A DNA stretch of 64,000 nucleotides from Minisyncoccota bacterium (GTDB lineage Bacteria; Patescibacteriota; Minisyncoccia; Phycocordibacterales; UBA9973). The translations under genes and the position numbers were made by a program. Location: NCBI GenBank assembly GCA_021734995.1, contig JAIPHX010000001.1:52590-116589 (forward strand), read 5' to 3'. Below are positions 13,177 to 14,679 of the stretch, piece by piece. Position 1 is the first letter of the stretch; each line of letters starts with the position of its first letter. The notes beneath the pieces are model-generated. The model was given only the letters and a program-made list of their open reading frames with translations. It made no database searches and was not told where the DNA came from.

Positions 13177-14679
13177 ATGGAAAATATTTTAAAAATTAAG
13201 AATAAATGGAAAGAAAAGAAGTTTTTGGTGGTGGGATTAGATACAGACCCCCAGAAGATTCCTCCTTTTCTTTTGGAGAGTGGGAAAAGTCCTCTTGAGG
13301 CAATGCTTCAGTTTAATAAAAAGATTATTGATGTTTCGGTAAATGATGTATGTGGTTTTAAGATTAATTCTGCTTTTTATGAAAAATACGGGATAGAGGG
13401 TTTGGGAGTAATGCAAAAGACTATTGAATATATAAAAGAAAAAGATCCGTCTGTCTTTACAATCGCAGATGCAAAAAGAGGGGACATTGAAAATACTAAT
13501 GAGGGGTATAAATACTTGTTGTACGGAGATTTTGATTTTGATTCTTTGACTATCCATCCGTATCTCGGATTGGAAGCAAATGAAACTTTTCTAAAAGATA
13601 AAAATAAAATGTTTTTTGTTTTGGCTAAAACTTCCAACAAAGATTCGGGGGAATTTCAAGATTTAGATGTTGGGGGGATGCCTCTGTATTTGAAGGTGAT
13701 AAAAAATATAAAAGAAAAATGGAATAGAAATAGTAATTGTGGTGTGGTGGTGGGGGCTACATATCCAGAACATTTACTGAGAGCAAGAGAAGAAGCAGGT
13801 GATGATGTTGTCTTTTTGGTTCCAGGGGTTGGTGCTCAAGGTGGAGATTTGGAAAGTGTGTTAAAAGCTGGTTTGAATTCAAAAAAAGAAGGGTTACTTA
13901 TAAATATGAGTCGTTCGGTGTTGTATGCTTCAAATGGAGAAGATTTTGCAGATAAAGCAAAAGAAGAAATACAAAAATTTAATCAGCAGGTAGAAAAAAT
14001 TCTAAAAGAACCTCAAAATTCTTGGCGAGAGATGAAGCGACAGTTTTATAAAAAGAGAACTTTAGAAATATTTAAGCAAACAGAAGCAGTCCTTACGGAT
14101 GATCATTTTGTTTATCAAAATCAAGAACACGGGAGTGTATATGTGGCTAAGGATAAAATAAATCCAAATCCTATTTTGATAAATGAGGTTGGGAATATGA
14201 TTGCAGATATGGTAAAAGAGTATGAGATTGATACAGTTGTGGTCCCTGCTGTAGGAGGTGTGGTACTTGGACACGCAGTAGCTAGAAATCTTTCACATAT
14301 AAAAGGGAAAAATATAAATAGTGTCTTTATAGAAAAAGGAGTAAAAGACGAAGAGGGGAGAGATACTTTTAAAATTACTCGTGGATATGATGTTTTTCTA
14401 AAAGATAAAAAAATATTAGTAGTAGAAGATATTGTGAATACTGGTTATAGCGTAAAGAAGGTGATAGGGGGTGTAAAAGAAGCAGGAGCACAAGTGCAAG
14501 CGATTGGAATAATCTGGAATAGAGGGAATGTGAAAGCAGAAGAATTAGACAGCACAGCTCCACTTTTTAGTTTAGTAGAAATGCCTTTTGAAAAATATAC
14601 TAAAGAAACATGCCCTTTGTGTAAGGCAGATATACCTATCAATATGCAGTTTGGGCATGGGAAGAGTTTTAAAAAGTAA
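13177..14679 (+). CDS. Bifunctional orotidine-5'-phosphate decarboxylase (N-terminal) / orotate phosphoribosyltransferase (C-terminal) fusion
   Basis: The N-terminal half resembles type-2 OMP decarboxylase (LVVGLDT..., FTIADAKRGDI, HPYLG). The C-terminal half has a PRTase motif (ILVVEDIVNTGYSVKKVIGGVKEAGAQVQAIGIIW) and an OPRTase-like core. Confidence 0.75.
   Translation: MENILKIKNKWKEKKFLVVGLDTDPQKIPPFLLESGKSPLEAMLQFNKKIIDVSVNDVCGFKINSAFYEKYGIEGLGVMQKTIEYIKEKDPSVFTIADAKRGDIENTNEGYKYLLYGDFDFDSLTIHPYLGLEANETFLKDKNKMFFVLAKTSNKDSGEFQDLDVGGMPLYLKVIKNIKEKWNRNSNCGVVVGATYPEHLLRAREEAGDDVVFLVPGVGAQGGDLESVLKAGLNSKKEGLLINMSRSVLYASNGEDFADKAKEEIQKFNQQVEKILKEPQNSWREMKRQFYKKRTLEIFKQTEAVLTDDHFVYQNQEHGSVYVAKDKINPNPILINEVGNMIADMVKEYEIDTVVVPAVGGVVLGHAVARNLSHIKGKNINSVFIEKGVKDEEGRDTFKITRGYDVFLKDKKILVVEDIVNTGYSVKKVIGGVKEAGAQVQAIGIIWNRGNVKAEELDSTAPLFSLVEMPFEKYTKETCPLCKADIPINMQFGHGKSFKK

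Follow-up and report, generated by a model that had tools for sequence, protein, structure and literature searches.

In a small-genome Candidatus Pacebacteria (CPR) bacterium, a single open reading frame of 500 amino acids, which we call pyrFE, very probably encodes a bifunctional UMP synthase that arose locally within Paceibacteria by the loss of a stop codon, and its orotate would most likely come from a PyrD-like protein encoded at 58171 of the same window (the whole 64-kb stretch of DNA analyzed). Consistent with the preliminary description, the one frame carries a type-2 OMP decarboxylase (OMPDC) followed by an orotate phosphoribosyltransferase (OPRT), and Pfam, NCBIfam and Foldseek agree that this order is opposite to that of animal and plant UMPS. 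A domain-level HMM scan recovered both parts, with Pfam OMPdecase at residues 46-256 (7.6e-24) and Pfam Pribosyltran at residues 326-451 (4.9e-12). The OPRT domain would convert orotate and PRPP to OMP, and the type-2 OMPDC domain would then convert OMP to UMP. We infer these two enzymatic activities, as well as the oligomeric state of the product and the selective benefit of the fusion. The features are as follows.

13131-13158, + strand: promoter-like TTGCAA-16-GATAAT, from a consensus scan
13160-13165, + strand: Shine-Dalgarno-like AGGGGA, 11 nt 5' of the pyrFE ATG, read directly from the sequence
13177..14679, + strand: pyrFE, OMP decarboxylase / orotate phosphoribosyltransferase, a single 500-aa ORF with an ATG start, stop included
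13201..13959, + strand: predicted type-2 OMP decarboxylase domain, TIM barrel, residues 9-261 (TIGR02127)
13468..13485, + strand: OMPDC motif D98-A-K100-R-G-D103, invariant in 20 fused homologs
13960..14061, + strand: junction/linker, residues 262-295, from the AF2 model and the homolog alignment
14005-14025, + strand: loop KEPQNSW, residues 277-283
14062..14643, + strand: predicted OPRT domain of the Thermus/Helicobacter type, residues 296-489 (TIGR01367)
14413..14451, + strand: PRPP-binding motif ILVVEDIVNTGYS, residues 413-425, aligned with the motif of 4paw
14611..14622, + strand: C-terminal CPLC motif, with C479 and C482 invariant, common to 4paw-type OPRTs
58171..59235, + strand: PyrD-like gene, divergent DHODH-like, 354 aa, Pfam DHO_dh, between fusA and tuf

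Comparison with known UMP synthases

The AF2 model of the pyrFE product (pLDDT 87.3, pTM 0.79) has as its top Foldseek match the UMP synthase of Leishmania donovani, 3qw4, which aligns over both domains (463-487 columns, E 5e-31). OMPDC-OPRT fusions are textbook-level knowledge in kinetoplastids. The preliminary description set the reversed domain order against that of eukaryotic UMPS, but the order by itself is nothing unusual: it is represented by a crystal structure (3qw4) and by an NCBIfam model (NF004034), and PMC2705460 gives it for kinetoplastids, some cyanobacteria, oomycetes and diatoms. Thus, the order from OMPDC to OPRT was already known, and the Pacebacteria protein is a further, independently formed example of it. 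A limited literature search found no earlier description of a PyrF-PyrE fusion from the CPR, which is a weak negative.

The Leishmania enzyme (3qw4/3qw3) resembles the pyrFE product in its N-terminal type-2 OMPDC, its C-terminal OPRT and its pair of predicted reactions, but overall identity with 3qw4 is just 25%. The OPRT subtype differs, with phmmer aligning residues 42-267 of pyrFE alone, and the relative placement of the domains differs from that in the AF2 monomer model (rmsd 10-17 Å over both domains). The kinetoplastid UMP synthase is a eukaryotic protein for which a tetramer has been described, according to work cited in PMC9978035. Animal and plant UMPS (OPRT-OMPDC) also combine both activities, the last two steps of de novo UMP synthesis, in one chain, but they have the opposite domain order, a type-1 OMPDC and another OPRT subtype. 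In Plasmodium falciparum, a type-2 OMPDC is likewise coupled physically to OPRT (PMC12697248), although there the coupling is non-covalent, in a heterotetramer of two separate proteins, whereas in pyrFE it is covalent. Type-2 OMPDC structures of this kind, 2za1, 2q8z and others, are among the PDB matches of the pyrFE product.

The benefit of joining the two domains is most likely 1:1 stoichiometry, co-expression and mutual stabilization more than true channeling. Channeling of OMP by the pyrFE product, supposed in the preliminary description, is an assumption, and we consider it unlikely that the fusion was selected for delivering OMP straight from the active site of the OPRT to that of the decarboxylase. 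The two steps are physically coupled elsewhere too, in eukaryotic UMPS, in Leishmania UMPS and in the P. falciparum OPRT-ODC heterotetramer, and fusion has occurred repeatedly in the CPR, which implies some benefit. However, the placement of the domains predicted in the monomer model is unlike that in 3qw4, and the geometry of the active sites depends on the oligomer since both domains function as dimers (PMC9978035). Most close relatives, moreover, cope with separate genes. For mammalian UMPS, the kinetic evidence for channeling is contested and stabilization of the domains is the better-supported advantage. We found no documentation of OMP channeling for an enzyme of the OMPDC-OPRT type.

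The N-terminal half

The N-terminal half matches the NCBIfam model TIGR02127 (pyrF_sub2) with 220.3 bits against a cutoff of 110.6 (E 2.5e-65), and the alignment spans positions 7-260 of the 261 in the model. Based on TIGR01740, the model of the type-1 OMPDC subfamily, the product scores 19.8 bits against a cutoff of 92.3. All top PDB matches of this half are OMP decarboxylases, both by sequence and by Foldseek, and structural comparison with solved type-2 OMPDCs gives TMt values of 0.89 for 3qw3, 0.80 for 3r89 and 0.82 for 4mjz. Beyond the motif at residues 98-103, the active-site-type residues D22, K62, N64, Q221 and R246 are invariant in the 20 fused homologs, and the stretch DAKRGDI is identical in the alignment with Leishmania 3qw4. 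The catalytic roles of these residues are presumably those assigned by established OMPDC enzymology. The N-terminal half had been read as PyrF rather than as a member of the KGPDC/HUMPS families, and the equivalog match to TIGR02127 rules the latter out. Neither family is among the best 25 of 35 NCBIfam matches, the remainder of which are weaker than E = 0.0016.

The C-terminal half

Based on its best matches, the C-terminal half is a putative OPRT, of a different subtype from the OPRT of the known fusions. Its best OPRT model is TIGR01367 (pyrE_Therm), with 124.5 bits (3.6e-36), under the cutoff of 150.25; with TIGR00336 it scores 63.8 bits, under the cutoff of 106.8. Because the TIGR01367 score is below the curated cutoff, the assignment of OPRT function rests on the best hit, the fold and the logic of operons. 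The best PDB sequence match is 4paw_A (4.5e-19), and in Foldseek the half superimposes on 4paw_B with a TMt of 0.82 and an rmsd of 2.3; 4paw is deposited as an orotate phosphoribosyltransferase (PDB). Within the PRPP motif (VVEDIVNTGYS), E417 and D418 are invariant in the 20 fused homologs, and so, further along the chain, is N448-R449-G450. In L088, a related Pacebacteria locus with a complete pyr operon, the pyrE is the sole phosphoribosyltransferase (PRT) and is 41% identical to the OPRT half. PRTs are present in the pyr operons of L076 and L029 too, and a Thermus-type PRT adjoins pyrF in >20 GTDB loci.

The scores under both OPRT cutoffs would also fit a C-terminal domain that is some other type-I PRT or a PyrR-/PurR-like regulatory fold, in which case the protein would be an OMPDC with an accessory domain. 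Weak matches to APRT, HGPRT and PurR models point the same way, as does the NCBI naming of standalone relatives as just 'phosphoribosyltransferase'. We nevertheless regard this alternative as quite improbable. The OPRT models, at 3.6e-36, are far ahead of the adenine, purine and PurR models, none of which does better than 8e-08, and the next-best match outside the OPRT models is to an 'OPRT-like' subfamily (7.5e-11). The OPRT structure 4paw is the best solved relative both by sequence and by fold, and the CPLC tail is common to the two proteins. In complete pyr operons, homologs of this half are the sole pyrE candidate, and the same type of PRT is fused to, or located beside, pyrF across many lineages.

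Origin of the fusion

Adjacent but separate pyrF and pyrE genes occur in GTDB genomes of Paceibacterota, Uhrbacteria, Levyibacteriota, Saccharibacteria, Nomura- and Gottesmanbacteria. These unfused pairs have a real pyrF stop codon, and pyrE then starts with an ATG at most a few codons further on, or the two genes overlap by 4 nt. In Patescibacteria loci such as L006 from Paceibacterota, L007 from Uhrbacteria, L040 and L050, the paired genes belong to the same subfamilies as the halves of pyrFE, in the same order and with 36-50% identity per half, but a stop and a restart lie between the genes where pyrFE reads through. Given these adjacent, separate genes in related Patescibacteria, the fusion looks like the loss of a stop codon. 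The precursor order, pyrF then pyrE, is deduced from Patescibacteria that are more remote from the pyrFE clade, and in some relatives pyrE comes before pyrF.

The starting state would have been an adjacent, translationally coupled pair of pyrF and pyrE genes, as is common in Patescibacteria. Loss of the pyrF stop codon within Paceibacteria would then have created a single frame, and the former intergenic stretch, together with the 5' end of pyrE, would have become a short helical linker. In the AF2 model, the junction runs from the end of the OMPDC C-terminal helix through a short loop to the start of an extended OPRT N-terminal helix, and the helices that flank the loop span residues 257-275 and 283-301. 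The linker plus helix extension comprises about 25-35 residues. Among the fused homologs the linker is variable, with indels, and the pyrF stop codon and pyrE ATG of unfused relatives map to its position.

We constructed NJ trees for each half (simple distance correction, about 200-270 columns, no true cyanobacterial sequences included). The pyrFE clade has support of 91/100 in the tree of the OPRT half and 95/100 in that of the OMPDC half, and it splits internally in the same way in both. Monophyly of all fused proteins has support of 0/100 in both half-trees, and each half has its nearest relatives among CPR genes that stand alone or side by side. These patterns suggest one fusion event for the pyrFE clade and several independent events, uncertain in number, elsewhere in the CPR. 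Both the number of fusions and the choice between fusion and fission are uncertain because deep branching within the CPR is poorly resolved; for example, the standalone protein P0269 is nested within the fused clade.

A wide distribution of the fusion across CPR and non-CPR genomes was considered and rejected, as the apparently full-length GTDB tblastn matches are two genes at the level of ORFs. We found no conserved synteny of the fused homologs with pyr genes. Fused homologs recur inside the ribosomal-protein operon.

The pyrFE fusion would represent an event of its own, apart from the cyanobacterial/kinetoplastid fusion, which has a classical PyrE, and from several other CPR fusions. It is very improbable that pyrFE instead belongs to that cyanobacterial/kinetoplastid family (PRK05500/NF004034) and was gained by horizontal transfer. 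Like pyrFE, the NF004034 family consists of bacterial single-chain proteins in which an OMPDC from the TIGR02127 subfamily precedes the OPRT. Among the NCBIfam matches of the pyrFE product, NF004034 ranks second, and no structure matches it better than 3qw4. However, the product scores 159.9 bits on NF004034, for which the cutoff is 656. Fusions that are nearer to this model (P0131, P0132, P0156, P0212, P0214 and P0211) reach 197-347 bits on it and match TIGR00336/PRK13809, thus carrying a classical PyrE where pyrFE has the Thermus type, a distinction drawn from these fusions and the family models. The difference in OPRT subtype extends to 3qw4, whose OPRT half phmmer leaves unaligned. The affinity of each half to CPR standalone or adjacent genes, and the 0/100 support for monophyly with the classical fusions in trees from which true cyanobacterial sequences are absent, also argue against transfer.

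The pyrFE gene changes little with regard to the enzyme architecture itself. It is a clean case of convergence, in which one pair of pathway steps has been fused repeatedly and the unfused precursor, two neighboring, coupled genes, can still be seen in sister lineages. Within one phylum, the fusions have drawn on two different OPRT subtypes.

Continuity of the reading frame

The PyrF-PyrE fusion is real and not an assembly artifact. The frame is unbroken across the domain junction, as read directly from the sequence. The other two forward frames across 13177-14679 contain 47 and 48 stops and the pyrFE frame one, so the open frame is not due to chance. The product is 100% identical to the NCBI protein 'MAG: orotidine-5'-phosphate decarboxylase [Candidatus Pacebacteria bacterium]'. 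Fused homologs (n = 20) were found on independent contigs that stem from various samples and several sources (NCBI, ENA, JGI and Logan); each has one frame, with 481-520 aa and 39-63% identity, and after clustering at 50% identity about 18 representatives align with pyrFE from end to end.

In many related genomes pyrF and pyrE are separate and adjacent, some of them in-frame with a single stop between, so that one base error could mimic a fusion; the probability that the two genes were merged here by a frameshift, a false join in the assembly or an error in sequencing is nonetheless minimal, given that the Logan contig L091, assembled independently, has 100% DNA identity with the locus along 7,136 bp, that the 20 single-ORF homologs come from different samples, that the closest homologs (P0002-P0014) have a linker consensus, LKLPxxxW...YE..T..IL, longer than an intergenic spacer, and that the junction forms two helices in the AF2 model with a pLDDT of about 85-96.

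The promoter-like site upstream of pyrFE is weak evidence, since the count of such sites is not above the shuffled expectation. Rfam and tRNA scans returned nothing that bears on pyrFE.

The PyrD-like gene and the pathway

The PyrD-like gene is the sole further pyr gene found in the window, in which Pfam and NCBIfam searches of about 50 ORFs recovered no carAB, pyrB, pyrC or prs. Its product is plausibly a DHODH that would supply orotate. It matches Pfam DHO_dh with 79.6 bits (cutoff 27), and its scores on 15 NCBIfam models are all far below cutoff, the best being 73.7 bits against 269. The SCPN catalytic-Cys motif aligns with the SCPN of L. lactis DHODB (1ep1), and C194 is invariant in 33 homologs. 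The fold is distantly like those of class-2 DHODH and DPD (TM 0.65-0.69, 17-21% identity). Small unannotated ORFs beside the gene were considered as a PyrK-like partner and rejected, as they have no cross-genome homology and no Pfam match.

Homologs of the PyrD-like protein adjoin pyrF in about 25/80 GTDB loci and are part of pyr operons in L076 (Acidobacteriaceae) and in L029. In L088, the operon is complete, with the order PyrD-like/pyrE/pyrF/pyrC/carA/carB/pyrB and the PyrD-like gene first; these seven genes indicate that de novo pyrimidine synthesis exists in the Pacebacteria class. The occurrence of the family in complete pyr operons of relatives supports the proposal that, with this gene and pyrFE, the genome retains at least the late steps of UMP synthesis. 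A search for early pyr genes beyond the ends of the window, by way of the edge proteins, found none on the short Logan contigs recovered.

NCBI names the pyrFE product as 'OMP decarboxylase' alone and the PyrD-like protein as 'hypothetical'. With these labels, automated reconstruction of the pathway would probably overlook two of its steps, pyrE and pyrD. Such annotation gaps matter to claims of CPR without UMP synthesis, as most CPR classes have been claimed to be unable to make UMP (PMC9166423). We raise only tentatively, as the less likely outcome, the wider reading that pyrFE and the PyrD-like protein might form a functional de novo UMP route in Paceibacteria, that the pyrimidine auxotrophy ascribed to most CPR classes other than Microgenomatia might be partly an artifact of annotation, and that the PyrD-like family might be a distinct, uncharacterized class of DHODH in organisms thought to lack respiratory quinones.

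The window also encodes genes for pyrimidine interconversion, namely dCMP deaminase, ThyA and DHFR.

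The fused reading frame is genuine

The preliminary description had placed both an OMP decarboxylase (OMPDC, PyrF) and an orotate phosphoribosyltransferase (OPRT, PyrE) in one ORF, as follows:

13177-14679 (+), pyrFE, 500 codons with an ATG start; OMPDC in the N-terminal half, OPRT in the C-terminal half

The ORF listing of the window returned exactly this frame, and Pfam and NCBIfam recovered both domains. Given 47 and 48 stops in the remaining two forward frames over the same span and a G+C content of 34% in the window DNA, so long an open frame cannot arise by chance. The identical protein is already in NCBI under the name orotidine-5'-phosphate decarboxylase, carried by a 166-kb contig, and both halves have the base composition of the genome. 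An assembly join or frameshift had been raised as a concern. A separate assembly, Logan contig L091 (run SRR12088350), matches the window at 100% identity across 7,136 bp that include the whole ORF, and 19 more full-length homologues from NCBI, ENA, JGI and Logan contigs (481-520 aa, 39-63% identity) are each encoded in a single frame. Of 1.84 billion cluster representatives scanned exhaustively with HMMER, ~18 aligned to pyrFE end to end. The fusion is real and not an artefact.

Domain identity and predicted structure

Pfam places OMPdecase at residues 46-256 (7.6e-24) and Pribosyltran at residues 326-451 (4.9e-12). The possibility that the N-terminal half belongs to the KGPDC/HUMPS family gives way to PyrF: the type-2 OMP decarboxylase model TIGR02127 (pyrF_sub2) covers residues 9-261 with 220.3 bits, where the curated cutoff is 110.6, no KGPDC/HUMPS model rivals it among the NCBIfam matches listed, and the leading PDB matches by sequence are all OMP decarboxylases. 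For residues 296-489 the best NCBIfam model is TIGR01367 (pyrE_Therm), with 124.5 bits, under its cutoff of 150.25; the classical pyrE model TIGR00336 reaches just 63.8. The best solved relative of this half by sequence is 4paw (4.5e-19), which shares its C-terminal CPLC motif and which is H. pylori HP1257, an orotate phosphoribosyltransferase according to its deposition. The PRPP motif quoted in the preliminary description was located at residues 413-425. Invariant across a 20-sequence alignment are the OMPDC residues D22, K62, N64, D98-x-K100-x-x-D103, Q221 and R246 and the PRT residues E417-D418, N448-R449-G450 and C479/C482.

The AlphaFold2 model built from this alignment (pLDDT 87.3, pTM 0.79) contains, in order:

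up to helix 257-275, TIM barrel
257-275, helix
277-283, short loop KEPQNSW
283-301, helix
after helix 283-301, type-I PRT fold

Its top Foldseek match in the PDB is 3qw4, the Leishmania donovani UMP synthase, in an alignment of 463-487 columns that takes in both domains (E 5e-31 to 2e-29, 25% identity). At an rmsd of 10-17 Å, the two proteins have the domain folds in common but differ in how the domains are placed relative to each other. Superposed separately, the OMPDC half matches 3qw3 (TMt 0.89) and the OPRT half 4paw (TMt 0.82, rmsd 2.3).

A known architecture with a different OPRT partner

The preliminary description had singled out the domain order as the point of interest. The OMPDC-then-OPRT order is not new, being recorded for kinetoplastids, cyanobacteria, oomycetes and diatoms in PMC2705460. 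However, pyrFE differs from known fusions: it scores just 159.9 on NF004034, the NCBIfam model for bifunctional OMPDC/OPRT (cutoff 656), and phmmer aligns it to 3qw4 by the N-terminal half alone. Other OMPDC-then-OPRT proteins found by exhaustive search (P0131, P0132, P0156, P0212 and P0214) have an OPRT half of the classical PyrE kind (TIGR00336/PRK13809); on NF004034 they reach 197-347 bits where the alignment spans both halves. The OPRT partner of pyrFE is distinct from theirs. Because P0131 and P0132 come from Saccharibacteria and Patescibacteria MAGs, both kinds of pyrE have become joined to pyrF within the CPR. We regard pyrFE as a predicted bifunctional PyrF-PyrE, a further and apparently independently evolved example of a known architecture, which is present in public databases already but under-annotated.

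A triple fusion, P0211 (807 aa, 13-kb Logan contig), joins class 1 PyrD (383 bits, above cutoff), PyrF and classical-type PyrE, spanning three consecutive UMP synthesis steps on one polypeptide. Some type-2 OMP decarboxylases are fused to a further 200-300 aa, located at the N-terminus in P0261 (477 aa) and at the C-terminus in P0165 (580), P0234 (469) and P0251 (551); no NCBIfam OPRT model matched these regions at E <= 1e-10.

Origin of the fusion

Matches in GTDB species genomes that seemed full-length proved at the ORF level to be two separate genes. In these loci pyrF comes before pyrE and ends in a true TAA/TAG/TGA stop; the pyrE ATG either follows a few codons on at most or overlaps that stop in a 4-nt stretch. 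They occur in Paceibacterota, Uhrbacteria, Levyibacteriota, Saccharibacteria, Nomura- and Gottesmanbacteria, and in one Calditrichaceae and one Mesoaciditogaceae MAG; six loci have the reverse order. The pyrF stop and pyrE start of unfused loci coincide exactly with the linker position of the fused protein, and the fused-clade linker is ~10-15 residues longer, with its own consensus.

Neighbor-joining trees were built for each half (100 bootstraps); these are simple distance trees of sequences other than authentic cyanobacterial and kinetoplastid ones. The clade of the window protein and homologues P0002-P0014 received 91/100 in the OPRT tree and 95/100 in the OMPDC tree, with the same internal split in both (window and P0002-6 vs P0007-14). 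Monophyly of all fused proteins received 0/100 in both trees, and P0016-18 join standalone OPRTs (99/100). The trees are consistent with a single fusion by stop loss in the window clade's ancestor and with several more events, fusions or fissions, in other parts of Patescibacteria. Nested in the fused clade of the OPRT tree is P0269 (L086 1396-2088), a standalone 230-aa OPRT-type protein with no pyrF upstream, its upstream neighbor being on the opposite strand; it may be the product of a fission, a paralogue or an artefact of the tree.

Proposed function

The OPRT domain would convert orotate and PRPP to OMP, which the OMPDC domain would decarboxylate to UMP, an order of steps that is established enzymology. 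The benefit of fusion more likely lies in fixed stoichiometry, co-expression and mutual stabilisation than in OMP channeling, as we infer partly from work on mammalian UMPS. OMPDC is an obligate dimer with a shared active site, OPRT is mostly dimeric and Leishmania UMPS is an unusual tetramer (PMC9978035), and in P. falciparum separate type-2 ODC and OPRT form a heterotetramer (PMC12697248). By analogy, pyrFE is expected to be a dimer or tetramer.

Genomic setting

The window comes from the chromosome of a CPR/Patescibacteria bacterium. Besides uvrABC, fpg, ruvA, nusG-rplK, a dCMP deaminase, folA, thyA, fusA, tuf, rplC, rplD and six tRNAs, it contains:

7447-11388 (-), predicted surface protein, 1,313 aa
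13145-13169 (+), short tandem duplication, ATAAGGGGATAAT then AAGGGGATAAT, directly upstream of the pyrFE start
26089-26171, tRNA-Leu(GAG)
26128-26673 (+), ORF with a bPH_2 domain
27460-28035 (+), VKOR homologue (vitamin K epoxide reductase family, quinone-dependent enzymes)
32838-41571 (+), six consecutive ORFs (575, 205, 486, 566, 553 and 410 aa) that match no Pfam family at E <= 1e-5
41651-44298 (-), archaeal-type PEP carboxylase (PEPcase_2, 432 bits) directly adjoining a class I/II aminotransferase
58171-59235 (+), PyrD-like gene

pyrFE stands by itself: a divergent 175-aa gene lies on one side and a convergent 256-aa gene on the other, both of unassigned function. A promoter-like TTGCAA-16-GATAAT and then a Shine-Dalgarno AGGGGA precede its ATG; the promoter is weak evidence, since the scan overall was not above shuffled expectation. 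The tandem duplication overlaps the -10-like hexamer and the Shine-Dalgarno. None of carAB, pyrB, pyrC or prs was found within the 64-kb window. The PEP carboxylase and aminotransferase could yield oxaloacetate and then aspartate, a pyrimidine precursor, which would be an unusual biosynthetic capacity for a CPR genome. The surface protein contains many internal repeats of Ser/Thr/Asn-rich modules (segments of the type '...TTYYWKAKF/TTYYFRA...' recur), together with a Gly-rich tract and, at its C terminus, a membrane anchor, a make-up that large CPR cell-surface proteins typically show. The bPH_2 ORF overlaps the tRNA at its mechanical GTG start; its true start probably lies further downstream.

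A divergent DHODH-like family

The more interesting by-product, beyond the fusion itself, is a divergent family of dihydroorotate dehydrogenase (DHODH)-like proteins and its implications for CPR pathway calls. The PyrD-like protein passes Pfam DHO_dh (79.6 bits vs 27) but falls far under every NCBIfam DHODH equivalog cutoff (best 73.7 vs 269), and NCBI names it a hypothetical protein. Alignment with L. lactis DHODB (1ep1) shows that the SCPN catalytic-cysteine loop is retained, and C194 is invariant. Its AlphaFold2 model (pLDDT 81.5) is distantly similar to class-2 DHODH and the DPD FMN domain (TM 0.65-0.69, 17-21% identity). Genomic context is decisive. In ~25 of 80 GTDB loci a strong homologue (1e-94 to 1e-165) is located no more than ~3 kb from pyrF, and in other loci a canonical class-1 PyrD takes its place near pyrF. 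In L088, from a related Pacebacteria genome, a 69%-identical homologue (10001-11077) heads a complete operon of PyrD-like, pyrE, pyrF, pyrC, carA, carB and pyrB. The order is PyrD-like, PRT, pyrF, pyrC, pyrB in L076 (Acidobacteriaceae, PyrD-like at 8182-9309) and pyrC, then PyrD-like, pyrF, prs, pyrE in L029 (PyrD-like at 8898-9968). Thus, this family very probably supplies the DHODH in these operons, and the claim, made from the PyrD-like gene and pyrFE, that at least the late UMP steps are retained in the genome is reasonable.

Members of this highly conserved family (66-72% identity, >120 clusters) occur in pyr operons of Patescibacteria and Acidobacteriaceae. They are extended at the N terminus, their catalytic loop is of the Cys type, and they fail all curated DHODH class models; their names vary among hypothetical protein, dihydroorotate oxidase and tRNA-dihydrouridine synthase. 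They may represent an uncharacterised DHODH class. CPR bacteria are generally considered to lack quinone biosynthesis, and the VKOR homologue may bear on the electron acceptor of the PyrD-like protein.

Among freshwater CPR, all UMP biosynthesis genes were apparently found in Microgenomatia alone (PMC9166423). The gene content of the L088 operon shows that at least some Paceibacteria also have the full set, and the names given in NCBI to the two proteins suggest a way in which pyrE and pyrD may be overlooked.

In several Paceibacteria the S10/spc ribosomal-protein operons are broken by unrelated genes (L003/L004/L005 8695-12645; L087 7584-12129; the P0012 contig; window 55540-61334; L092 7142-12628; L090 1584-4741). 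In the window's genome a 577-aa gene without a Pfam match lies between L2 and S19; in three lineages fused pyrFE and a DAGK gene lie between rplB (L2) and rpsS (S19). The PyrD-like gene sits between fusA and tuf in both the window and the P0006 lineage.
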